Shown: positions 3,333 to 54,826 of the stretch, piece after piece
How positions within the stretch are numbered: position 1 is the stretch's first letter
Layout of the letters: every line of letters begins with the position of its first letter
Virus record (IMG/VR): IMGVR_UViG_3300046524_000141
Location: 3,988 to 67,987 of that record
Strand: one strand, 5' to 3'
Origin: a virus
DNA: 64,000 nucleotides
Made by a program: the position numbers and the translations under genes
The notes under the pieces: model-generated
Databases searched by the model: none
What the model was told of the DNA's origin: nothing
The model's input: the letters and a program-made list of their open reading frames with translations, nothing else

Positions 3333-3998
3333 ATGGATCTGAAAACCTGCACCAAGTGCGGCGCCGAGAAATCGCATGATCAATTCACCGTCAGAAAAGC
3401 CAGCAAGGACGGTCTTCACCCAAGTTGCAAGGATTGCCGCGCAGCATACCGCGCTCGCAATTCAGAAAAGATTCGTGAATATAACTCTGCGTACTATGCG
3501 AGCGACATTGATGGCCAGCGCGCTCGCGCCAAGGTATGGCGCGATGCAAACGTAGAGCGCGCCCGCGAGAACTATCGTAAGTTTTACCTAAAGAATCGCG
3601 ATATCCGGCTGCAATATTCAAAGAATTGGGAGCGTAGCAACAAGGAATCTCGCCTTGAATACCATCGCAAGTATTACTGGTCCAATACGGACAAAGTGGC
3701 GTTCAAGAACTTTAGGTATAGAAGAGAGAACCCCGAGAAGGTCGCCGCACTCTGGATGCGTCGATACGCATCTAAACTTAGGGCGACGCCACGCTGGGCA
3801 GATTTTGATGCAATTGAGGCGATATACAAAGAAGCCGCCAGGATCAGCAAAGAGACTGGCATTGAACATCACGTCGACCATATCGTGCCCCTCCAGTCCC
3901 GGTTGGTGTGCGGACTGCACTGGGCGGCAAATCTTCGTGTGATTCCGGGTTCAGAGAACCAAAGCAAGGGCAACCGGCACTGGCCGGATATGCCATAA
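3333..3998 (+). CDS. Free-standing HNH homing endonuclease
   Basis: N-terminal CxxC...CxxC; C-terminal HVDHIVPL...CGLH..NL...EN..KGN HNH motif. Confidence 0.9.
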   Translation: MDLKTCTKCGAEKSHDQFTVRKASKDGLHPSCKDCRAAYRARNSEKIREYNSAYYASDIDGQRARAKVWRDANVERARENYRKFYLKNRDIRLQYSKNWERSNKESRLEYHRKYYWSNTDKVAFKNFRYRRENPEKVAALWMRRYASKLRATPRWADFDAIEAIYKEAARISKETGIEHHVDHIVPLQSRLVCGLHWAANLRVIPGSENQSKGNRHWPDMP

Positions 3999-4493: not shown

Positions 4494-4915
4494 TGGCCCG
4501 CAAATCTCACACGATCGTCATTGAGGCCGAAGGCCGCGACAAGGGCAAGATGTTTACGATCGCCGAAATGCCCCCCTCGCAAGCCGAAAAGTGGGCATTC
4601 CGCGCCCTGCTCGCACTGGCGAAATCGGGCGTTGAGGTGCCGGATGACATCGCGAGCGCCGGCCTGGCTGGCGTTGCTGCCATGGGCATCAAGGCATTCT
4701 CGGGCCTCAGCTTTGAGGATGCGGAGCCGCTGCTCGACGAGATGTTCGCCATGGTCTCGTTCGTTCCCGATCCGGCGCGTCCCGCCATCAAGCGCGGCCA
4801 TGGTGGCGTTGGACCGTTGATAGAGGACGACATCGAGGAAATCTCGACGCGTCTGCGTCTGCGCAAAGAGCTGTTCTTCCTGCATACAAATTTTTTTACA
4901 GCCGTCGTCGGCTGA
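4493..4915 (+). CDS. Tail assembly chaperone (gpG-like)
   Basis: GRDKGK.F.I.EM motif; lies between tube and tape measure; ends in a slippery T7 run. Confidence 0.8.
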   Translation: MARKSHTIVIEAEGRDKGKMFTIAEMPPSQAEKWAFRALLALAKSGVEVPDDIASAGLAGVAAMGIKAFSGLSFEDAEPLLDEMFAMVSFVPDPARPAIKRGHGGVGPLIEDDIEEISTRLRLRKELFFLHTNFFTAVVG

Positions 4916-5121: not shown

Positions 5122-7103
5122 GCACCGTAATTGACGCGCTGGTTGTCTCGCTTGGCCTTGACGCCTCTGGTTTTCAAAAAGGCCAGAAGGACGCCTCGGC
5201 GGCGATGAAGAAGACGAGCGACGATGCCGACACAACCGCCAAGAATATGGAGGCCCGCGGCAAACAAGCCGGCGAGTTCTTCGGTCAGATCAAGAATCAG
5301 GTCGTCGGCCTGCTCGCGGTCTTCACGGCCGGCAAGGGGCTGTCGTCGTTCGTCTCCGATGTCGTAGCCAGTGACGCCGCCGTGGGCCGCATGGCGAAGA
5401 ACATCGGCATGTCGACCGAAACCCTGTCTGCATGGCAGGGCGTAGCGGAACGTGCGGGTGGTTCGTCTGCCGGTATCACGGGCTCGCTGAAGGCGATGGC
5501 GCAGCAGATGGCGCAGATATCGATCACCGGCACGCCGGGTGCGCAGGTTCTGCAAAGTTTGGCTATGTCCGGCATCAACGTGGCGAAGTATTTCGACAAG
5601 GCCACGACATCGAGCGAACGTCTGTTGATGGCGTCGGACGCGTTCAAGGGCATGGATGCATCCCGCGCTCAGGCACTTGGCGCCGGCATGGGCTTTGACG
5701 AAGGCACCGTGAACGTGCTAATGCAAGGTCGTCAGGCTGTACAGGCGTTGCTGGCAGAGCAGGAAAAGATCGGCGTCACGAACGAGGCTGATGCGAAGTC
5801 TGCGCAACAGTTGCAGGCAGCCTGGCGCGCCATGGGCCAAGCATCAACCGACCTCGGCCGCAAGATTCTCACGTCGCTGTCGCCGTACATTCAGCAGTTA
5901 GCGGCTGCGCTGCTTAAGCTCTCGGAATGGGCGGCGACGCACCGGCCCATGGTCGAAGCCATGTTCATCGGCCTGGCTGCCACCGCAGCGGCGTTTGCCG
6001 TTGCACTAGCGGCGCCTATAGCTGGTATCGCAGCATTGGCTGCGGGTATCGGCGTTGCCGTTGCCGCTGTTGCCGTGCTTTACGACGACTGGAAAACCTG
6101 GATCGACGGCGGTCAGTCTGCATTCGGCGGGTTCTGGCAGTTCTTTGCGGACAAGTGGAATGCGATCTCGGGCGTTGTGACGCCGGTCTTCGCATCGCTC
6201 AAGGCAGTCTTCACCGACTGGGTATCTGGCGTCGAGGATCTGCTCAAGCTGGTCGTGTCGCTCTTTACCGGCAACGGTGACGACATCCGCAAGGCATGGT
6301 CCGCCCTTATCGGCGATCTCGGCCAGTACTTCACCGACTGGGTTGGTCTAATCAAGAATCTTGGGCCGGCCATTCTGGCTGCGTTCAAAACAGCATTCTC
6401 GGTTGCTTTCGACTGGGTCAAGGGTCGGGCCAAGGCCGTCTGGAATGCGATCACGGGCAAGCATGATGCAGAACCCGCCGCTGCTCCGCCAACGGACGGT
6501 GCGCCGGCCAGTCCGTCCAAGCCGTCTGGTGGCACATCGGTTCTCGCCGAAGCCATGCAAGCGGCCAAGTCTTCTGAATCGAAGTACGGCATCCCGGCTG
6601 CGGTGACGATGGCTCAGTTCGCGATCGAGAGCGGCAACGGCGCACACATGCCAGCAGGTAGCAACAATCCGTTCGGCATCAAGGCCAGGGCCGGTCAGCC
6701 CTATGTTGAGGCTCAGACCAACGAGTTTATCAACGGCAAGATGGAGCGCGTCACGCAGCGGTTCGCCAAGTTCGATTCGCTGGCCGATGCTTTCGATTCG
6801 CACGCCAAACTCCTGGCGACGGGCAGCGCTTATGCATCCGCCAGAACGCATGAGAATGATCCCCAAGCTTTTGCAAACGCACTGACGGGAAAATATGCGA
6901 CTGACCCGCAATACGGGGCGAAGCTCAACGCGATCATGGCGCGCAACAATGCCGGCGGCGGAAATACCAGCACCAGTGACGTGAAGATTGCGCAGATCAA
7001 CGTGCAGACACAGGCGACCGATGCGAAGGGTATCGCCAAGGACATCGGGCCGGCGGTGAAACAGTACGCCTTTACCGCGCAGGCAAACACAGGGCTTAGC
7101 TGA
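5118..7103 (+). CDS. Tape measure protein with C-terminal GH73 glucosaminidase (FlgJ-like) domain
   Basis: Ala-rich helical 661 aa with a hydrophobic segment; C-terminal AQFAIES, NPFGIKA and YATDP motifs. Confidence 0.85.
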   Translation: MSTVIDALVVSLGLDASGFQKGQKDASAAMKKTSDDADTTAKNMEARGKQAGEFFGQIKNQVVGLLAVFTAGKGLSSFVSDVVASDAAVGRMAKNIGMSTETLSAWQGVAERAGGSSAGITGSLKAMAQQMAQISITGTPGAQVLQSLAMSGINVAKYFDKATTSSERLLMASDAFKGMDASRAQALGAGMGFDEGTVNVLMQGRQAVQALLAEQEKIGVTNEADAKSAQQLQAAWRAMGQASTDLGRKILTSLSPYIQQLAAALLKLSEWAATHRPMVEAMFIGLAATAAAFAVALAAPIAGIAALAAGIGVAVAAVAVLYDDWKTWIDGGQSAFGGFWQFFADKWNAISGVVTPVFASLKAVFTDWVSGVEDLLKLVVSLFTGNGDDIRKAWSALIGDLGQYFTDWVGLIKNLGPAILAAFKTAFSVAFDWVKGRAKAVWNAITGKHDAEPAAAPPTDGAPASPSKPSGGTSVLAEAMQAAKSSESKYGIPAAVTMAQFAIESGNGAHMPAGSNNPFGIKARAGQPYVEAQTNEFINGKMERVTQRFAKFDSLADAFDSHAKLLATGSAYASARTHENDPQAFANALTGKYATDPQYGAKLNAIMARNNAGGGNTSTSDVKIAQINVQTQATDAKGIAKDIGPAVKQYAFTAQANTGLS

Positions 7104-22101: not shown

Positions 22102-22679
22102 ACGCGCACGATTACGCCCTGCTAGCCGCAGAAGCGTATAGCGCGGCCCCGGACATCGGAAAGGCAGATAGCGCATCACGGGCGATCGTGCGCACAACTG
22201 CAGCCGGGTTGTGCATTGCCTTTCCGGGCACGGATAACGCGGATTGCTTTGAGGCGGACTTCGATATTGAGCCGATCGACGTGCCGGGCATCGGCAAGTT
22301 TCATCGGGGCTTCTACCAAGCGTGGCAGGCCATCTCCGTCCAAGTGCTTGCCGCTATCAAAGGGCAGCCGGTGACGCTGGTCGGACATTCGCTGGGAAGC
22401 TCGATAGCGATAGCAGCCGCCGCAGAGATGACCGCATCAGGCAATCCGCCCGTCGCCGTCTATGGCTTTGAACCAGCGCGTGTCAGCCCGGATCTTGGCG
22501 TCCGCACTCTGCTCGCTAAGGTGCCGGTCCATCTATACAAAAATGGATTGGACCTGGTGCCCGACGTTCCGCCCGGCTGGCATCATGCCGCGCTGCTAAC
22601 GCATATCGGGAAGCCGGCGCTGCCACTTCCTAACGTAGTCGATCACCAAATAGCCAGAGTCATTCAGGCCTTGGCTTAA
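22098..22679 (+). CDS. Lipase class 3 (alpha/beta hydrolase)
   Basis: AFPGT, HRGF, GHSLG nucleophile elbow, DLVP.VP and C-terminal DH. Confidence 0.9.
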   Translation: MNAHDYALLAAEAYSAAPDIGKADSASRAIVRTTAAGLCIAFPGTDNADCFEADFDIEPIDVPGIGKFHRGFYQAWQAISVQVLAAIKGQPVTLVGHSLGSSIAIAAAAEMTASGNPPVAVYGFEPARVSPDLGVRTLLAKVPVHLYKNGLDLVPDVPPGWHHAALLTHIGKPALPLPNVVDHQIARVIQALA

Positions 22680-22690
22680 CAGTTCAACGG

Positions 22691-22719
22691 TTGTAAACCG
22701 CCATAACAGGCGTTAGACT
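22691..22719 (+). promoter_or_regulatory. Sigma70 promoter for the tRNA-like RNA
   Basis: TTGTAA-17nt-TAGACT; predicted +1 at G22726, the first base of the RNA stem. Confidence 0.65.
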
Positions 22720-22725
22720 GTCTGT

Positions 22726-22819
22726 GGGGTGAATGTCTGGGCGACGGCTCAGGCAGGCTTGGTATGCGACGTCATAGGACTAGCGTCGCTCGCCGGTTCA
22801 AATCCGGCCACTCCTTCCA
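22726..22819 (+). ncRNA. tRNA-like structured RNA without a canonical anticodon arm
   Basis: GGGGTG/CACTCC acceptor-like stem, 9-bp hairpin, 6-bp hairpin, perfect T arm GCCGG-TTCAAAT-CCGGC, 3' TTCCA; cUUCGg hairpin at 22831-22854 downstream. Confidence 0.7.
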
Positions 22820-22863
22820 TCCGCTGTATCCCGTCCGGGCTTCGGTCCGGGCGGCACCCTTCT

Positions 22864-23217
22864 TTAGCTCGCAGTCTGCGGCACGTCTACCCTATTCCCA
22901 ATCGCAGCAGCCGCCCTTACGATCGCGCGTCGCGTGGCGGCGCAGTAATCGTCTAACACAGCCTCGCAGAGTGTCGTTCGCTCGTTGAATTCCTCATCGG
23001 TCCACGGATAGTCAGCTTCCACCACCGCGAACTGCTGGCGAACGCTAATGTCGAGCTTCACCGCCAACCGCAACGCATCGCCATCATCGGTGAGCGGGTT
23101 CCAGATCATCGGCCCATCTCGTCCAACGCCAAGCACTAGTCCGTCAGGGCTGTTCGTGCTCCAGTGATCAATTCCCGCCGCCCTTGCCGCACTCTCCAGC
23201 AATTCCCTGTCGCTCAT
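22864..23217 (-). CDS. Hypothetical phage protein
   Basis: WNPLTDDGDALRLAVKL...ATRRAIVRAAA, a common phage motif. Confidence 0.7.
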   Translation of the reverse strand: MSDRELLESAARAAGIDHWSTNSPDGLVLGVGRDGPMIWNPLTDDGDALRLAVKLDISVRQQFAVVEADYPWTDEEFNERTTLCEAVLDDYCAATRRAIVRAAAAIGNRVDVPQTAS

Positions 23218-23756: not shown

Positions 23757-24749
23757 CTATTTTCCCTTTCCGATCTTGCTGACGGCATCTGCCAATCGCT
23801 CGGTAACCAGGTGCGCATACCGCTTGGTTGAGGTCGGCGTCTTGTGCCCCAGCACGCCACCTACAGTGTACAGATCGATGCCCGCATTGATCATTTCTGA
23901 TGCAGCGCTGTGCCGTAGATCGTGGAATCTGAGATCGGGGAATCCCGCTTTGGCTCGCGCCTTGTTCCACTCGTCTTTGATCTTGCTTGGCCTGATCGTG
24001 AATCGGACGCGGCGCGCGATGACGGCAATTCTTGGGTGAATCGGCACAACGCGCGGACGACCGTTTTTGGTCGTACTGAGCGAGTATCCATCTCGCGTCA
24101 CGGTAGCACGCAAAATCTCGCTCAGGCGCATGCCAGAGTAGAAGGCTACACGGATCGCCGCCCTAGTCTCTTTGTGCGCGCAAACCTTCGCGATCTTCAG
24201 CATCTCGCGGCGCCCCTTGTAGATGTGACGCTCGTTGCTAAATTTTGGGATGACCATCTTGCCCGTCTCGTCGTGGGCAATTTTCCCCTTCTTGTGCGCG
24301 TATTTGATAGCGGCCCGGATATAGCCTAAGGTGTTGCTGATGGTCTTGTCGCCTGTCGGCTTTTTGGGATTGCCATTGCGATCGATTCGTGCGCGCATGT
24401 AACCCGCGAATTTCACAGACCAATCGTATAGCTCCAGCGCGTCCTGATCCTCATATTCGGATGCATACTTCTCCATGACCTGAGACCGGATGGTGAAGTC
24501 CTTCCAGCTAGTCCCTTCATCCTGGAAGTGAAGTCGCACGCATTCCCCGATGGTAACGACCGGCTTCTTGATGCCCGTCTCTACCGCGTAGACTTCAGCG
24601 TCCCACTGGCGGCCAAGCTTGTCCGCGTCTGCCGCAGAAAATCCCGCAGGGATGACTTTGGTTTTTCTGACACGCTTGCCTTCGATGACGCGCTCGAACG
24701 TCCAGCGGTAGCGCCTGCGCCCATTTTTGGTGATGGTTTCGATTGGCAT
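23757..24749 (-). CDS. int: Tyrosine integrase
   Basis: SGMRLSE, TKNG, HDLRH and LGH...TKRY catalytic residues. Confidence 0.95.
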   Translation of the reverse strand: MPIETITKNGRRRYRWTFERVIEGKRVRKTKVIPAGFSAADADKLGRQWDAEVYAVETGIKKPVVTIGECVRLHFQDEGTSWKDFTIRSQVMEKYASEYEDQDALELYDWSVKFAGYMRARIDRNGNPKKPTGDKTISNTLGYIRAAIKYAHKKGKIAHDETGKMVIPKFSNERHIYKGRREMLKIAKVCAHKETRAAIRVAFYSGMRLSEILRATVTRDGYSLSTTKNGRPRVVPIHPRIAVIARRVRFTIRPSKIKDEWNKARAKAGFPDLRFHDLRHSAASEMINAGIDLYTVGGVLGHKTPTSTKRYAHLVTERLADAVSKIGKGK

Positions 24750-34836: not shown

Positions 34837-37800
34837 GCGGCCTCCTTTTGTCTTGGTGCGCCCCTGTACTGAGGCTGGGTTAGATGCGACGGCGGCTCGA
34901 TCACGTTGGCGATCAGGACTTTCCAGTGTTCCGCGGTGTTCCGCACCACTGGTCCGGCGTCGTTATCGATCTGGCCGCGCTCCGGGGCTTCGCCAAGTGG
35001 ATCAACGACCGAGCACGGCACTGCAATCGTGCTGTGCCCATTGTTGTAATAACCCTGGTCAGCCATAACGCAGTCCTCGGAGTACTTACCCGACCATGAA
35101 AGCGGGTATGCATATCCGGCGTCGTCTGGCCGCCAGAACGTGATGTACTTGTCGCCGCGCTTGGTCCACTTCAGGCTGACGATGTAGAACTCTTTCATAG
35201 CTCGTCTCCGCATTCGCTGCAGCAATCCCGCATCTCGCGGTGAATTCCCTTGCTCCCTTGGAACTCGTATCGTCCGATGCCGAAGTCGCGCTGAATCACG
35301 ACAGCATCGGCACCGCAGTGATGGCAGACGATTTGAATGCGGTCGTCGTCCAGATCCATGTAGTCGGGCTCTCTCATCACGCCACCTTTGCTCTAACAAA
35401 CGAGCGGGCCACGTTTGCGGGGATATGCGCCAACCCAATCGCCATCGGCCTCAGCCCCCGCCGCGCATTCCGCTCCTTCTTCTCCGCCAGTTGCGCGTCG
35501 TTCATCGCTGCCAAATGGCGCAGTTGCGCTTCCATCTTTTCAGCTTGGGTGAGGCGCGCGGTTGTGATGACCGTTCGAAGGTCGACTCCGATAAGGTTCA
35601 TCTCAGCCTCCCGTATGTGCTTTAACCAGCGCCCAGACAATGGCAACAACAACGCCGCCAAGGCCCGCGCCAGCAGTGATTTCGTAGATGTAGCTAGACG
35701 CCACGCGTTGGGCGTTCTCGGCGGCGAGGCGGCGTAAGGCTTCGTCGGAAAGCGTCACGACGGCGTCGTCGGTCCGGAAGTAGGTCAGCATGGTTGGTTC
35801 CCGGTGGCTTTGGCCATAGCCGCTATGGCGCGATCCACAGCCTTCATTGCCGCATTTGTGTGCCAATGTGAGGGACCAGGAACCCGGCCGATCAAATCCC
35901 GCGGCGCTTCGAGTAGCGTCGGCGCGGCGGCGATCAGGCGGGCGTTCGCCTCACTAAGGCAGTGAATCTGCCCGGTCAGAATTCTTTCTCCTGATGGGCC
36001 TACGAGCCAAGGTGCGTGCTGCTCCGTGTCGTAGCCTTCTTGCCAAACCTCATCGTCATCCCACTGCCACGGTCCGCTTGTGTGCTTGATCTCGCTCATG
36101 CTTCCCTCGCTTTGAGCATTGCGTCGGCCATGCGATAGCAATGGTCCGCAAATCGGGCATATAGATCAGGATGGTCACAAACCACCAATCCATGATTCCA
36201 ATCCGCCAGCATCTTCGCCGCAAAGTAGTCGCGTAGCGTCATGCCGAATTCGGGCGCGAACTGCCCCGGCTCGCCTGCAATCGGGAATGCGTTACCACCG
36301 TCTTTGATATCGCTCATCGCAACGCCTTGAAAACTTGATCGAACGTGGCATTGACTCCGCCGAAAAGTTCGGTGTCGCAGAATTCGGAGTACTCGCGCTC
36401 CCATTCTTCGTGCGTGAGCGGGGCGGGAGATCCTTCGAAACTTGCATCCAGGTCGCGGTTGCGGAAGTCGTCGCCAATGGTTTGGTCTACAGTAAGCATG
36501 AAGTACTCCTATTTGTTATGTGGAGAACCCTGGCGGATTACAGCGTCTTAAACTGGAATTCGTCAGGGTGTCGGGCATCCCACCCGACTGGGCCTTGCTA
36601 GAGCCAGGCTGGCTTAGTGGGAATCAGTCGGTCTTCCGCTCAAACCTGTCGCACGAGGCCATCTTCTGAACGGCAAACCCGCCGAGATCGCAACGGATGT
36701 TCTTTTCTTCTGTGATCACGTAATTGCCTGACGCCCATGCCGGACGGCGATCCTTAAATTCCGACGAAAAGTGCTTGCAGTGCTGGCAACTCATCGACTG
36801 CTTGCGGTAGCCCTGCGCATCCTTGTTTTCGCTCTGCTTGCTCATCGCTCAAAATCTCCTGTCCATTCATCAAGCGGCCCCAGCAACGTCTCGCGGAACC
36901 ACAGCCATGCGGCCCCATCCTTCGCCGCCAACTCGGCCAACTGCTCGTCAATCGATGCGCGGGTCATTTCGACCCATTCGTCCAACGCTGTATTCGGTTT
37001 CATGTGAACTCCTATGTCCACCAGCCAAACCAAACCCCGATCCCGCGGAAAATTCCAACTGGGAACACGAACACGCCGACCAGCAGCAGCACGTAAAGCT
37101 GGTGGATGAGGCAGTCGACAATGTGTGTCAGCCAGCCGGCCAGAGAAATCAGGAACACGATCATGGCGACCATTCCGAACGATGCTTCACCTCGTTGCTT
37201 CTTCATGCCCGCCTCCATTCCGTTTCCCACTTCCGCGAATCCTGGCGGCGCTCGTCGGCGCCGTGGATGAAGGCCACCGCCAGAAGGGATACAGCGGACC
37301 AGGCGATGATCCCGGCCCATACGTAGTGAATGTTGATGGTCATTTCGGTTGCTCCGTGAGGCCGCGCCATTTATCCCTGCGTTCCATGCTTGCCGTGTCG
37401 CCGTCATCGCAAATTCCAACCGGTTCGCAATACTGCCAACCGGTGCCGGTCCACTTAAGACGGTGATAAGGATCGATATCGTTATCGCCGATGAAACATG
37501 GTCGGTAGACTTCGTAGATTCCGGGGCGGGCTGGGCGGATGGCGGCCATGTACCATTCGGTCTTTTTCATATCAGCACCATGTAATTGAATCAATCAGAA
37601 CGAACTGCGAATCCAGCACCCTGCCCGTCCGCGTTACCCGGTCGATCCGGTAGACGAAGCCAAGGTGCTGTAACTTCTCTATTGCTACCGTCATGAGGCG
37701 GTGTACTGCGCGTTGGGCGGGCATGGTGGCTCCTTAGAACACGCTCTCGTATTCCTGCTCGCGCGCTTCGAGATACGCTTCGTGGGTTGCTTTGCTCATC

Positions 37801-38336
37801 TGGCCCATGATCGGCGCGCTACGCAGTGCTCCATCGTTACCGTGAGTCCAATCCATGTAGCAGCGCTTGGCCCGTTCCTGCTCTTTGGCGCCGATGTGCG
37901 GTGTGTACTTGCTGCGGTACTCGACCGGCTGGACTTGAATCCGCTTGAACTCGACGTTAAGCGCCAGATTCTTGCGACCGGCCAGGATCACGGCCCGCGT
38001 GCGTTGGTTGTGTTTCTTGCTCACTTGAATCTCCTGCTCGTCAAATCGAGTGGTGACGGGTTTATGTGCGATGGGGCGTTACGCCGTCTTTTCCTTGGCG
38101 CGTTCCTCGGCAACCACTTGCAGCGTTGCAACAACGGCATCCGAGACGGTTTGGATAATCCAGTCTGAGCGATAGAACGTTATGCCGTCCTTGTAGAAGC
38201 AAGGCACGATTGGCTTCGCCACGATTCGATACTCGTCACTGGCGAGGCATTCAAAAACATCGCTTCGGTACGAACCGTCTTTGCCGGCCGCATGAGTGAC
38301 GCCAAAGAAATCACCCGCTTTCGGAAACTGTTCCAT
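34833..38336 (-). CDS. Cluster of small early-left hypothetical proteins (34833-35198, 35195-35377, 35377-35601, 35603-35791, 35785-36099, 36096-36317, 36314-36499, 36624-36845, 36842-37003, 37012-37206, 37203-37343, 37340-37570, 37734-38024, 38079-38336)
   Basis: Co-oriented and mostly translationally coupled. Includes common phage motifs KHT.GPW...ANARLIAAAP and GMTLRDYFAA. Confidence 0.65.
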
Positions 38337-38455
38337 GTTTTCTCCTTGTGCGCCGCAGCGCATAGTTGTACTAACAGGCGTATCTACGCCAACTCTCTGA
38401 TCCCGCTTATGGCTACCGACTCGCTAGAATCGGCAACTGTAAGAGAGATCGTTTT

Positions 38456-38576
38456 GGGTGCTTGAGGGATGGGGCTGGCACCGATCTCCAGCTTGTTGCT
38501 CGTGCCGAGTGGGAGCAACCCCTTGTGTCGGCTTTCAGTGCGCCTCGGTCGACGCATTCCCATCCCCTAAACATCC
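38456..38576 (-). ncRNA. Structured RNA with kissing-loop potential, same architecture as the 22726 RNA
   Basis: GGGATGGG-AA-TGCGTC(GACCGA)GGCGCA...GCTGG(AGATCGGTG)CCAGC-CCCATCCC; loops ACCGA/TCGGT are complementary; long outer stem. Confidence 0.65.
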
Positions 38577-38581
38577 AGCGT

Positions 38582-38761
38582 TGCAACTCTCATGGAATCG
38601 GGCCGGCGGTTTTCATCTGATCCGGCTTGGGGCGTGGCACTAATTCCCCGCTTGTACGGCTACGCCGCGCATACCACCTATCACCTACCGGCGCGACGCG
38701 CTTTCGGTTGCGATCCTGCGCGCCATCACCACTGGCGCATTCCGATTCCATCAAAACTGCA
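38582..38761 (-). ncRNA. Second structured RNA of the same architecture
   Basis: ATGGAATCGG-AAT-GCGCCA(GTGGTGA)TGGCGC...GCCGG(loop)CCGGC-CCGATTCCAT with an extended outer stem. Confidence 0.6.
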
Positions 38762-38984
38762 TGCAGACCGACCGTGCATCTTTGGCCGGTCTGGCGGTAT
38801 TGCTTACATGCGGTTCCAGTCTGTTTTCCCTTCCCCGCATGCCTTCCGCCTCAATCACCCGAATCCCGTTCCGGTGACCGCTGCGGGCGCTCCGCTTTTT
38901 ACTCGAGCGGTTGCTGTGTTCCGAGTCCCTTTCGGGAAATGGTTGGCTTAACTACGCCTGTGCGCACCATGGGCGCGACATACT

Positions 38985-39002
38985 CTAAATTGTTCATGAA
39001 CG
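38985..39002 (-). promoter_or_regulatory. boxA-like antitermination element
   Basis: CGTTCATGAACAATTTAG resembles boxA (GCTCTTTAACAA) and lies in the pL leader. Confidence 0.4.
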
Positions 39003-39199
39003 TTTGCCCTACCAGGCGACGCCATGCGCCTGTGTTCCTCTACTGCGGTATTCGGAGCCGCTTACGGCGGCAAGTCGGCGACTACCACGTCAGGTCGCTT
39101 CTGGCAGGTTCTGCACGATCAAACCCAAGACGTCGAAAACAACCTGCAAGTGACATAGCCCGGCAAGAGCACTCATTGAACGCGCTTGCCGTGCCAGTC

Positions 39200-39633
39200 T
39201 CATTCTTCGTAATCCCCATTCCAGCGGGCGACAGCGGTGTCGTATTCTTCGTCGCTCATGTCCGTCGCATCCTGCCAGCCACACGCGATCATCTGCGGTA
39301 CTTCGGCGGGGTGGAACCAGTTGCTCTTGAGCCTCGTTCGTTCCACCAGAACCAGAAGCCGGAAACCTTGCTCTTCCAGGGTCATGGTCGATCTCACGCA
39401 ACAACGCGAATGCCATGCGTCAAAGGATGCGAGTGCGCACCACTTCCTAGGGCGACGCGCAGACGCCGAACGTTCGGGACGTTGCGGCGCTCTTGATTCC
39501 ACTGGTCGCGGTGGATCGGCATCGGGCCAACTGCGATTCCACTGTTGACCTTGCCGCTCTTCAGTGTCCACTCGACGCGGGTTCCGGCTTTCGGCATCGC
39601 GCGGTACGCTTTACGACGTTGGCTTGAGTTCAT
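39200..39633 (-). CDS. First two pL genes, hypothetical (39394-39633, 39200-39385)
   Basis: GGAG RBS; directly downstream of pL; the first is Arg-rich. Confidence 0.55.
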
Positions 39634-39678
39634 GCTCGCTCCCGGTGGTTGGTGATGCGTGTTTGCTGCGATGTGTGA

Positions 39679-39764
39679 AGTATAGCGAATCGCTAGCTAC
39701 TTGCAACAACTATTTTTAGCGATTCGCACGGATGCGCTAGCGATATATTTATAGCGATTCACTG
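39679..39764 (-). promoter_or_regulatory. pL promoter with three operators (OL)
   Basis: Minus strand TTGCAA-16nt-TATACT; TAGCGAATCGCTA (39683), TAGCGATTCGCAC (39717), TAGCGATTCACTG (39752). Confidence 0.8.
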
Positions 39765-39783
39765 GCGAGTGTTGTATAGACGC

Positions 39784-39808
39784 AAAAAACCCCGCACGCG
39801 GCGGGGTT
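39784..39808 (-). terminator. cI terminator
   Basis: AACCCCGC/GCGGGGTT hairpin with a T tract on the minus strand. Confidence 0.75.
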
Positions 39809-39830
39809 CGTTGGGGGGGAGTGGTGGAGC

Positions 39831-40640
39831 TTAGAGGAGGTTGTCTGTCCAGACGGCCCGGCCAATGATCATGGTTCGGTCGTCAGGCGGAAGGATCTTG
39901 TCGGGAAACTGAGTCTTGTCTGGATTGTCGCTGCGGAGAATCCAGACTATCGCCCCAGCTGCAGGGTGATAGTCGTGCACCAGGCGCTTCAGGATCAGGC
40001 CGCCATCTGGTAGGCAGGCGGCGTATATTTTTCCGTCGATTGGGCTCCTCGCCGCTGTATTGATTAATACGACTCTACCGTCCTGTATGGTGGGCCGCAT
40101 GCTGCCGCCGTCAGCGTAAATGATACGCGCCGCATGCTCTGGTACACCCTGCTCTCGCAGGAAGGATTTCTTGAAGGCGAGACCACCTTTAACAACAACA
40201 TGGTCCTCGAACCGGCCGTTGCCGCAGGCCGCCGCGATGTCTAACTGGGGCACGAATGCGAACTCTTCTTCTGTGGGTTGGGGAAGATCTCCTTCGGTAA
40301 GATTACGCCCCGCATCTGGCCCGCTTTCAGAAATCAAACGTTTGCGATGCCTCTTATTCGCAAGATCGGAAGCGTTTGAATTATGGTAAGCGGACGCCGA
40401 ATTATCTGTGTGCTCAACGTCCATCCAGCCGTGGCCCTCCCCTATGGCGCGCTCAAGCTTCCGCGCCATGGTGTCGCCCATCCCCTTGGGCTTGCCTGTC
40501 TTGCTCTCCGGCGTCCTGTTCTTGATCTGGCTTAGGTAGGCGGCCGATACCCCAGCCTTCTCCGCCAGGGCCGTAATGGTGTTGTGTCGCTCTATCGCGA
40601 TCAGCAGGTTCTCGCGGCGAATCTCATCAATTGTCTTCAT
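39831..40640 (-). CDS. cI: CI-like repressor (HTH plus S24 peptidase)
   Basis: HTH LAEKAGVSAAYLSQI; ACG.G cleavage site; GGSMRPTI and LKRL catalytic motifs. Confidence 0.92.
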   Translation of the reverse strand: MKTIDEIRRENLLIAIERHNTITALAEKAGVSAAYLSQIKNRTPESKTGKPKGMGDTMARKLERAIGEGHGWMDVEHTDNSASAYHNSNASDLANKRHRKRLISESGPDAGRNLTEGDLPQPTEEEFAFVPQLDIAAACGNGRFEDHVVVKGGLAFKKSFLREQGVPEHAARIIYADGGSMRPTIQDGRVVLINTAARSPIDGKIYAACLPDGGLILKRLVHDYHPAAGAIVWILRSDNPDKTQFPDKILPPDDRTMIIGRAVWTDNLL

Positions 40641-40653
40641 GGCCGCAATTTCA

Positions 40654-40718
40654 TAGCAAAACGCTAACGAATGGAATGTGCGATTCGCTATTGCATTCAG
40701 CTAGCGAATCGCTATAAT
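40654..40718 (+). promoter_or_regulatory. OR operators and pR
   Basis: TAGCAAAACGCTA (40654), GTGCGATTCGCTA (40678), TAGCGAATCGCTA (40702); TTGCAT-16nt-TATAAT. Confidence 0.8.
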
Positions 40719-40725
40719 GACCTGC

Positions 40726-41061
40726 ATGAACCTGAAAACTTACCTCTCTCTTGAACGCGGACGCACCAGCGCATTGGCTCGAGCAATCGGAGCTCATGCC
40801 CCCGATGTTAGCCGATGGGCTGACGGGAAGCGCCCGATTCCGATCCAGTTCGGCATTCCGATCGAACAGGCGACCAAGGGAGAGGTAACCCGACTGGAGA
40901 TTTTTCCGGTCGATGTGATTGAAAAGGTTTGGCCGGAATTGCTGAAACGCAAGAGTAAGCGAGCCAGCAAGGTCGATGAAGCGGCTGCGTCCGACGACAC
41001 CCAGCCGCCCGTAGGTTCGGGACCGAAGAAGAAGGACAAGCTGGCAAGAATGAGCGCGTAA
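40726..41061 (+). CDS. cro: Cro/YdaS-like regulator, probably leaderless
   Basis: LARAIG....VSRWA.G.RPIP....IE.AT.G.VT motif; ATG 7 nt after the -10 box. Confidence 0.85.
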   Translation: MNLKTYLSLERGRTSALARAIGAHAPDVSRWADGKRPIPIQFGIPIEQATKGEVTRLEIFPVDVIEKVWPELLKRKSKRASKVDEAAASDDTQPPVGSGPKKKDKLARMSA

Positions 41062-54753: not shown

Positions 54754-54826
54754 GGGTGGTAGCTCAGGGAGCAGGCCGGATTCCAAATCCGAGTCGAGCT
54801 AGGTTCGATTCCTTCGCCGCCCGCCA
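54754..54826 (+). tRNA. Atypical or degenerate tRNA-Trp(CCA)
   Basis: GGGTGGT/GCCGCCC acceptor plus G-CCA; CGGA-TTCCAAA-TCCG anticodon arm; GGTTCGATTCC. D loop is only 3 nt and the T stem is mismatched. Confidence 0.65.

Follow-up and report, generated by a model that had tools for sequence, protein, structure and literature searches.

To understand what is encoded in an ORF-poor, densely folded stretch of a phage genome, we examined the minus strand of positions 38340-39200 in a window of 64,000 nucleotides (positions 3,988 to 67,987 of IMG/VR virus record IMGVR_UViG_3300046524_000141; coordinates below are those of the window). An earlier note, made from the sequence alone, had described this region as about 850 nt of consecutive hairpins carrying two RNAs of one architecture, at 38456-38576 and 38582-38761, and we asked first whether these structures exceed chance and then what kind of RNA they could represent.

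The minus-strand RNA of 38340-39200 has an MFE of -363.5 kcal/mol, against a mean of -319.9 for 20 dinucleotide shuffles (z -6.48, with 0 of 20 as good). Folded alone, element 38582-38761 (element 2) gives z -2.64 (2 of 200 shuffles as good) and element 38456-38576 (element 1) gives z -3.30 (0 of 200). No minus-strand ORF inside 38364-39195 exceeds 59 aa, and none of the 4 ORFs tested inside the stretch, including a 289-aa antisense ORF, matches Pfam or PHROGs; as the stretch is also mosaic in relatives, we rejected the reading as a coding region. The features of the locus, where the loci numbered with an L are those at which we compared related sequences and R1 is the covariance model described below, are the following:

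38582-38761, minus strand: element 2, a complete cassette with a widely conserved core that we call type A; 80% identical over 113 nt to Pseudomonas phage FBPa47.
38742-38761, minus strand: element 2, 5' strand of the closing stem P1, which pairs with 38582-38601; duplex folding of the arms gives 25 pairs, -30.7 kcal/mol.
38582-38601, minus strand: element 2, 3' strand of P1.
38720-38738, minus strand: element 2, hairpin P2, 6 bp with a 7-nt loop GUGGUGA.
38672-38677, minus strand: element 2, 5' strand of pseudoknot PK1 (GUGGUA), which pairs with 38634-38639 in the P5 loop.
38634-38639, minus strand: element 2, 3' strand of PK1, inside the P5 loop.
38653-38671, minus strand: element 2, hairpin P4.
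38629-38649, minus strand: element 2, hairpin P5, with the conserved AGUGCCA in its loop.
38602-38626, minus strand: element 2, hairpin P6, 5 bp with a 15-nt loop, flush with the P1 3' strand.
38456-38576, minus strand: element 1, a cassette with the same scaffold but a core found nowhere else.
38559-38576, minus strand: element 1, 5' strand of P1, which pairs with 38456-38473; duplex folding gives 21 pairs, -28.2 kcal/mol.
38456-38473, minus strand: element 1, 3' strand of P1.
38539-38556, minus strand: element 1, hairpin P2, 6 bp, loop GACCGA.
38474-38492, minus strand: element 1, hairpin P6, 5 bp, loop AGAUCGGUG, flush with P1.
38495-38532, minus strand: element 1 core, a possible pseudoknot (GCCGA/UCGGC and GUUGCUC/GAGCAAC).
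38762-39195, minus strand: an upstream run of hairpin modules, mosaic among related phages and without the cassette scaffold; pieces are shared with L005, L006, L015 and L036, and R1 finds nothing here.
38364-38455, minus strand: three downstream hairpins, ending in a conserved hairpin plus Shine-Dalgarno sequence before the next ORF; about 80% identical to L006, where a different first gene follows, with the anchor motif found in only 3 viral contigs.
39679-39706, minus strand: a promoter-like site downstream of the cI-like repressor gene (39831-40640, minus strand; identified by phrog_4, E 2e-31).

Each part of the layout described in the earlier note is present in both elements: an outer stem, AA(U) leading into a 6-bp hairpin, a variable insert, and a GC(C/U)GG-loop-CC(G/A)GC hairpin flush with the 3' strand of the outer stem. 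The ACCGA/UCGGU complementarity between the P2 and P6 loops that the note had seen in the first copy is real (5 bp, -6.7 kcal/mol); in element 2 it is weak, only 4 bp and -3.5 kcal/mol. The second pairing proposed for element 1, GCCGA/UCGGC, is also in the sequence, and together with a 7-bp GUUGCUC/GAGCAAC helix it would form a pseudoknot in the core, although this comes from reading the sequence of a core without relatives. The observation itself is therefore confirmed, with both elements lying exactly where the note had placed them.

To find out whether these elements belong to a catalogued RNA family, we scanned the whole window with Rfam 15 and obtained 0 hits at gathering score, including none to the large ornate phage-associated RNAs GOLLD, ROOL and HEARO or to sRNA-Xcc1. 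At E<=10, only three unrelated weak hits appeared in 37800-39900, none of them to these models, and permissive scans of 5 representative loci including lambda likewise gave only weak unrelated hits. Exact 26-32-nt patterns from element 2 and the 3' anchor returned only the window's near-identical relatives in viral contigs, and the same kind of pattern returned nothing in the genome collection. A blastn search of the L006 leader against named phages gave no match, and a search of E. coli complete genomes with an enterobacterial type A copy gave only a 42-nt flank hit in 1 of 5426 genomes. Hammerhead or other known self-cleaving ribozymes were rejected, since there is no Rfam match and no conserved catalytic core in the minimal forms. 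In the literature searched we found no description of this scaffold, although lists of candidate RNA motifs in the supplements of motif-discovery papers could hold it; the prophage anti-sRNAs of PMC4104026 are 51-60 nt, lie elsewhere and are a different thing.

We next built a covariance model (R1) from relatives. It finds element 2 at 123.3 bits (E 1.5e-31) and element 1 at 32.9 bits (E 6.3e-7, at 38454-38578), both over model positions 1-172. MAFFT plus RNAalifold alone recovered the core helices but misaligned P1 and P6, and so the model-based alignment was used instead, which still misplaces the 3' half of P6 in the window, L032 and L015 rows. Over 23 type A relatives (22 distinct), 95.1% of cells pair against 80.8% in shuffles (0 of 500 shuffles as high) and 28-46% in slid controls, and 34 of 62 pairs show double changes. 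Among these, 19 of 20 P1 pairs covary, all 6 P2 pairs and 3 of 5 P5 pairs show double changes, and 97.4% of P4 cells are paired. The first pair of PK1 is A-U in 13 and G-C in 9 of the 22 distinct relatives, with none broken, and is G-C in the window; the other 5 pairs never vary. Element 2 also matches the type A sequence pattern that was searched for, with the pseudoknot between RUGGUA and the P5 loop, whereas element 1 does not have this core. Over 79 scaffold matches, 90.7% of cells pair against 70.6%, and 25 of 31 pairs show double changes; these matches were fetched by an exact P2 motif, so the invariance of P2 in that set is by construction, and the nested helices were counted on alignments fitted to the model, which leans towards it. 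The kissing loops covary as well: across 19 distinct loop pairs, own partners average -5.5 kcal/mol and swapped partners -3.0, and none of 5000 permutations was as good. G-U cells outnumber A-C cells 49:12 and 89:54, which favours RNA of this strand.

The family so defined is widespread in phages. At least 120 viral contigs carry the exact P2 motif, and the layout comprises P1 (median 21 pairs, anchored at the junction in 106 of 109 elements), a 2-nt AA linker, P2, a variable core, and a 5-bp P6 flush with P1 whose loop is complementary to that of P2. The cores of 109 elements fall into 68 clusters, that of element 1 being a singleton, and different cores sit in the same slot of D3-like phages. 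Six sources carry two copies: the window, L003, L016, L042, L106 and L112. Cultivable carriers include Escherichia phages Gally and IME10, Pseudomonas phages FBPa47 and D3, and Hafnia phage Meifeng.

In enterobacterial lambdoid phages the cassette lies between nutL and the N gene, while other copies lie between Q and the holin gene. Named phage records annotate a Nut boxA site upstream and antitermination protein N downstream of the element, and 10 of 10 tested genes that start 13-15 nt after P1 match phrog_271, N-like. The lambda N leader and locus L115 share near-identical, homologous P1 arms and flanks but have different interiors. The lambda N-leader hairpin is a known RNase III target, for which Steege 1987 on N gene leader RNA processing is among the citations given in the literature, and the stretch between NutL and the N Shine-Dalgarno sequence has been called highly structured (PMC5725501, citing Wilson 2002).

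Taking these results together, we consider it somewhat more likely than not that elements 38582-38761 and 38456-38576 are two tandem copies of a modular, RNase III-type processing cassette, transcribed as part of the leftward early operon, that would release a compact RNA. What the analysis establishes is the architecture with its covariation, the large size of the family, the interchangeable cores and, in lambdoid phages, the position between nutL and N with P1 arms homologous to those of the lambda hairpin. What we infer, in the absence of cleavage or transcript data for any member (no RNA run was listed for 38340-39200), is that host RNase III cuts P1, which would separate the upstream leader from the downstream message and release the inner domain as a discrete RNA of about 90-150 nt; that the kissing P2/P6 pair acts as a folding clamp bringing the distant P1 strands together; and that in an 850-nt untranslated stretch the dense structure may also deny Rho a loading site. 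Some observations weigh against this reading. The window copies are not N leaders, as no neighbouring ORF matches N-like families, and their link to the lambda site is by shared architecture only. R1 does not match lambda's own leader, so lambda lacks the P2/P6 scaffold. Moreover, a plain RNase III site needs only a stem, and does not explain the sequence conservation of P2 and P6 in at least 120 contigs or of the type A core across Pseudomonas, Hafnia and soil-type phages.

Comparison with the closest known systems places the cassettes as follows. The lambda N-leader hairpin occupies the same place as the enterobacterial members, after the boxA/boxB region and 13-15 nt before the start codon of the N-like gene, and is also strongly structured (z -5.08); however, its interior lacks P2, P6 and the kissing pair, and the window copies come in tandem and are not next to an N-like gene. 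RNase III cuts the lambda leader at about +88 and +197. In the leader-trailer stalk of rRNA operons, with nut-like boxA/boxC and an RNase III site around 16S rRNA (a parallel described in PMC8632103), a G/U-rich 5' strand after a nut-type element likewise pairs with a distant 3' strand and encloses a structured RNA in a stalk of RNase III length, but here the enclosed RNA is 50-190 nt and not 1.5 kb, there is no ribosomal function, and many copies lie where no nut site is evident. The intergenic RNase III sites of phage T7 early and late RNAs, T7 being listed among RNase III targets in PMC5371410, are also structured elements between genes of a phage polycistronic RNA that would define mRNA ends; T7 sites are simple bipartite hairpins, whereas here a multi-helix junction with kissing loops and a variable cargo caps the stem. 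With tRNA and tRNA-like RNAs, such as the bacterial Y-RNA-like YrlA, the minimal forms share a four-way junction: closing stem, 2-nt linker, first hairpin, middle hairpin (5 bp with a 7-nt loop in L047 and L041), and a 5-bp last hairpin flush with the closing stem, with the first and last loops touching. The closing stem, however, has about 21 bp and not 7, the loop contact is a 4-6 bp kissing helix and not a D-loop/T-loop contact, the T-loop sequence is not conserved, and the Rfam tRNA and Y-RNA models give nothing.

The interpretation offered in the earlier note, a diverged three-member family of L-shaped tRNA-mimic sRNAs with swappable inserts, RNase III-like outer stems and two members expressed early, is only partly supported. 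The shared architecture, the RNase III-like outer stems of about two helical turns, the covarying kissing loops and the swappable inserts all hold. The suggested correspondence to Rfam sRNA-Xcc1 is not supported by anything tested here. Membership of the RNA at 22726 is not supported either: with filters off, the best R1 hit in 22400-23100 scores 3.5 bits and none spans the element (22715-22822), and this RNA has a canonical T arm and, as the only Rfam hit there in a permissive scan of 22500-23000, a weak tRNA-Sec-like score of 15.6 bits (E 2.8) against a gathering score of 47. The tRNA mimicry is topological only, since ARAGORN found only tRNA-Trp at 54754 in the window and no tRNA overlapping an element there or in the 15 loci scanned, and no Rfam tRNA model gave a hit at E<=10 across the two window elements. 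The name pL leader is approximate: the promoter-like site at 39706-39679 matches 9 of 12 consensus positions but is weak, as the scan found 1 site, fewer than the 2.0 expected by chance, and a small conserved ORF (39385-39200) comes before the structured stretch. Early expression is inferred from position only.

A possible but less favoured alternative is that the cassettes are chiefly genes for trans-acting stable RNAs, in which P1, P2 and P6 form a nuclease-resistant scaffold of cloverleaf topology and the variable core is the working part, a decoy, sponge or aptamer for a host or defence factor that RNase III or another nuclease merely releases. In agreement with this, the cores are hypervariable while the scaffold is constant, and they keep their own structure through compensatory changes within clusters, as in the switching PK1 pair. 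The cassette is also not tied to one gene, since it occurs with N, holin, DNA polymerase and primase downstream and with Q, small terminase, ParB-like and transposase upstream, and in L098 it heads a cluster of three tRNA genes between Q and the holin gene. The occurrence of two copies in six sources fits this view too. It remains tentative, however, without expression data, an identified target or an associated protein; the variable cores could be neutral filler between constrained helices, and the negative tRNA searches count against it.

A further extension, which is speculative and which we regard as doubtful although it would be of great interest if true, is that temperate phages of Proteobacteria carry a general RNA cassette system, in which a constant scaffold of cloverleaf topology (long stalk plus two kissing hairpins) is cut out of operon leaders by RNase III and presents one of many interchangeable structured cargo domains acting in trans on host or defence factors. 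That would make it an RNA counterpart of the protein 'moron' and anti-defence islands found at the same genome positions, and the pseudoknotted type A cargo of element 2, conserved from Pseudomonas to Hafnia phages, would be the first such cargo with a definable target.

An unlikely alternative is that the stretch is a passive shield or insulator, whose dense folding blocks Rho loading and decouples downstream translation from upstream context without any specific processing. About 850 nt without a credible ORF inside an operon do fold very strongly, and cassettes lie in leaders of operons governed by N-like and Q-like antiterminators. Nevertheless, generic structure would not need a conserved P2/P6 sequence, a covarying kissing interaction or a P1 held at about two helical turns, and many copies are single elements of 80-150 nt rather than long untranslated stretches.

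It is very unlikely that the type A core is a ligand-sensing, riboswitch-like domain controlling the gene downstream. Long runs of invariant unpaired nucleotides plus a pseudoknot are conserved across distant hosts, and in the N-leader copies tested the start codon lies 13-15 nt after P1, behind a Shine-Dalgarno sequence. However, no expression platform is visible, P1 does not overlap the Shine-Dalgarno sequence in the enterobacterial copies, the downstream genes differ, the same core sits 110 nt or more from the next gene in D3-like phages and is followed by a second cassette in the window, and there is no Rfam riboswitch match.

Equally improbable is an action at the DNA level, as palindromic mobile or recombination-boundary (MITE-like) sequences with incidental RNA folds: although the elements are bounded by inverted repeats at module boundaries of mosaic phage genomes, one matching flank is annotated as a boundary sequence in phage CUS-3, and in L042 a transposase gene lies just upstream of one copy with a second copy on the opposite strand, the terminal repeats (P1) are the most variable part and change by compensation while the inner hairpins are constant, the reverse of a transposon with conserved ends, G-U exceeds A-C, the pseudoknot and kissing loops make sense only in a single strand, and in the window and every named or gene-tested locus the element lies on the same strand as its flanking genes.

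The lambda N leader is a textbook regulatory RNA, and our results suggest that its RNase III stem is one plain member of a much larger family, in most relatives of which that stem encloses a conserved kissing-hairpin scaffold and an exchangeable structured core, at the control points of phage development after nutL/N and after Q. If the cores act in trans, this is a new class of phage RNA effectors; if they do not, it is still a well-supported new structured RNA family with a possible role in operon processing, and it would be a natural folding scaffold of possible use in RNA engineering. In at least one phage record, that of Hafnia phage Meifeng, a hypothetical CDS is annotated over the element.

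To establish whether the folded region described in the earlier note is real, we first examined its genomic setting in this temperate phage, where the minus strand carries the following features in order:

39831-40640, minus strand: a cI-like repressor gene (phrog_4, E 2e-31), facing a cro-like gene on the plus strand at 40717-41061
39728-39808: a bidirectional terminator-like hairpin after the repressor gene
39706-39679, minus strand: a promoter-like site
39385-39200, minus strand: a small ORF conserved in relatives
From there to 38364, minus strand: a stretch with no minus-strand ORF above 59 aa
38582-38761, minus strand: element 2
38456-38576, minus strand: element 1

The terminator-like hairpin gave a weak Rfam asX2 match of 18.5 bits, against a gathering score of 70, and this match was driven by the terminator. 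The RNA of 38340-39200 folds to -363.5 kcal/mol, while shuffled sequences gave -319.9 (z -6.48). ORFs inside the ORF-poor stretch were compared with Pfam and PHROGs and matched nothing; these include a 289-aa antisense ORF (38627-39496, plus strand) that spans much of the structured stretch, has a low-complexity Arg/Pro/Ser-rich translation and is probably spurious. The two elements lie exactly at the coordinates listed, and each contains the parts that the earlier note had described. The observation made in that note is confirmed. Upstream of element 2, a module at 38801-38971 (minus strand) is 69% identical to L005:2557-2727 (numbers of the type L005 denote the retrieved loci); its hairpins change by compensation and it keeps a conserved loop, ACAGACUGG. 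It may be another structured RNA family.

To find relatives of element 2, the region was compared with named phages by blastn. A single hit was obtained, a 65-nt piece of element 2 in an unannotated gap of Pseudomonas phage FBPa47, a D3-like Detrevirus. Searching with that gap found the same core in Hafnia phage Meifeng, where an annotated hypothetical CDS on the opposite strand (MIFENG_31, L010:2243-2590) overlaps the promoter region and the 5' part of the RNA element and is probably a miscall. A degenerate pattern built from the three copies then fetched 19 viral and 9 metagenome loci, which gave about 24 distinct sequences. We aligned 11 of these sequences, wrote a consensus structure and from it built a covariance model, R1, with 172 positions and 51 pairs. 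Over 29 sources, R1 finds 25 elements with the core of element 2, here called type A, at 55-197 bits, with element 2 itself at 123 bits. It also finds weaker full-length matches that share only the scaffold, among them element 1, at 32.9 bits and E 6e-7.

From 5' to 3', the architecture begins with P1, a long closing stem for which duplex folding of the arms gives a median of 21 pairs, anchored at the junction in 106 of 109 elements; the window copies, elements 2 and 1, have 25 and 21 pairs. P1 is followed by a two-nucleotide AA linker, by P2, a hairpin of 6 bp with a 6-7-nt loop, by a core, and by P6, a hairpin of 5 bp that is flush with the 3' strand of P1. The P2 and P6 loops can form a kissing interaction, for which the variants seen are GCUGA/UCAGC, UGAUGA/UCAUCA, GGUGG/UCACC, GGCG/CGCC and, in element 1, ACCGA/UCGGU. 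The type A core of element 2 adds small hairpins, runs of invariant unpaired nucleotides and a pseudoknot between RUGGUA and the loop of hairpin P5.

To test whether this structure is supported by sequence variation, we counted pairing over 23 type A matches (22 distinct rows). In these, 95.1% of cells pair, against 80.8% in shuffles (0 of 500 as high) and 28-46% when partners are slid; 34 of 62 pairs show changes on both sides, and 19 of 20 P1 pairs covary. The nested helices were counted on alignments fitted to the model, whereas the pseudoknot and the kissing helix were not part of it, and the alignment misplaces the 3' half of P6 in the window, L032 and L015 rows. The variable pair of the pseudoknot is A-U in 13 rows and G-C in 9, and is never broken; its other five pairs never vary, so they say nothing either way. 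In the kissing helix, one pair shows double changes in 5 rows and is unpaired in 3. When the loops were paired with their own or with swapped partners, over 19 distinct loop pairs, the values were -5.5 and -3.0 kcal/mol respectively, with 0 of 5000 permutations as good; however, many of these pairs share one P2 loop and are therefore not independent. On 79 scaffold matches, 90.7% of cells pair against 70.6%, and 25 of 31 pairs show double changes. In addition, G-U cells exceed A-C cells 49:12 and 89:54, as expected for RNA of this strand.

The family is large and its cores are highly variable. The exact 20-nt P2 motif occurs in at least 120 viral contigs, and in 80 loci retrieved from these R1 matches 79 places at E<=0.01, with lengths of 80-230 nt. 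Only one of them (L055) scores as a full type A element, while L069 and L073 carry a divergent type A-like core. The 109 cores fall into 68 blastn clusters, of which the type A cluster of 26 is inflated, because 24 of its members were fetched by its own pattern. Within a core cluster, stems change by compensation. The core of element 1 has no relative among the loci compared. In D3-like Pseudomonas phages, the same slot holds different interiors in FBPa47, YMC11/02/R656 and D3, with the same flanks, the same short P1 and a terminator after it. A total of 61 phage records (60 Pseudomonas, 1 Hafnia) match parts of the FBPa47 slot (L001:3900-4200; L009:1480-1760; L011:1470-1800); most share only the terminator and its downstream flank, and the piece between the flanks differs or is absent, so this looks like a hot spot for exchange in D3-like phages. 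The minimal forms of the cassette are four-way junctions of cloverleaf topology.

We next asked where the cassettes sit. In 18 of 109 elements, a start codon with a Shine-Dalgarno sequence follows P1 by 10-19 nt, and all 10 of those tested are N-like antiterminators (phrog_271). Named records annotate a Nut boxA site upstream and antitermination protein N downstream. The lambda N leader aligns with locus L115 through near-identical P1 arms and flanks, while the interiors differ; lambda's own hairpin is strongly structured (z -5.08), but R1 does not match it. Just inside P1, the lambda N-leader interior (L040:474-608, minus strand, corresponding to lambda 35373-35507) has a stretch, GAUACGAAACGAAG, that resembles the conserved type A stretch GAGAUCGAAACGUAAG, and lambda's interior may be a decayed relative of that core.

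Other cassettes lie in late leaders and elsewhere. Of 20 upstream ORFs, which were picked by size and are therefore a biased sample, 7 are Q-like antiterminators and 2 are cI-like repressors, while the rest are a transposase, a ParB-like protein, a small terminase and unknowns. Holin genes follow in 3 of the Q cases. In L098 (6487-6868), the cassette is followed 32 nt later by tRNA-Asn, tRNA-Arg and tRNA-Thr genes, all of them between a Q-like antiterminator gene and a holin gene. Six sources carry two copies: the window, L003, L016, L042, L106 and L112. In L042 the two cassettes lie on opposite strands (4586-4713, minus; 6437-6577, plus), with a transposase gene (phrog_157) just upstream of the minus-strand copy. 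In the window, the two copies lie in tandem between two small ORFs of unknown family, and not beside an N-like gene.

RNase III processes the lambda N leader (PMC5371410, citing Steege 1987), and the stretch between NutL and the N ribosome binding site is highly structured and bears on N autoregulation (PMC5725501, citing Wilson 1997 and 2002). In rRNA operons, a nut-like element delivers boxC to its distant complement, forming the RNase III site around 16S rRNA (PMC8632103). RNase III cleavage of the lambda leader is placed at about +88 and +197, and by our count +88 falls in the 5' arm of P1. The most likely reading for the family, including the two window copies, is a processing cassette. 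While the scaffold, its covariation and its positions come from the analysis itself, the three steps of this reading are inferred only: that RNase III cuts P1, that the cut separates upstream from downstream RNA, and that a compact RNA is released. The conserved P2/P6 clamp and the conserved type A core are more than a cleavage site needs and are not explained by this reading, and a trans-acting role for the released RNA therefore remains a serious rival. Protection of the long untranslated stretch from Rho is a possible added role.

Rfam 15 has no matching model, and literature searches found no description of the family, although these did not extend to supplements or to most subscription papers, so that a prior description cannot be excluded. 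Phage RNase III leader and intergenic hairpins are already known; what is new here is the covarying kissing-hairpin scaffold, its exchangeable cores and its breadth.

The interpretation given in the earlier note was partly supported. Its suggestion that the kissing-loop form may correspond to Rfam sRNA-Xcc1 is not supported by the Rfam searches. With regard to the proposed L-shaped tRNA mimicry, only the secondary-structure topology is alike. The note had also counted the RNA at 22726 (22715-22822, plus strand) as a third copy; this RNA is not a member, as R1 finds nothing there even with filters off. It has a canonical tRNA T arm, a 6-7-bp acceptor-like stem and an encoded 3' CCA at the expected place, but ARAGORN does not call it, and Rfam gives only a weak tRNA-Sec-like score of 15.6 bits. 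A tyrosine-recombinase-like ORF (23757-24749, minus strand) lies about 930 nt away. This RNA looks tRNA-derived rather than a third copy, and it may be a degenerate tRNA or a tRNA-derived attachment-site remnant.
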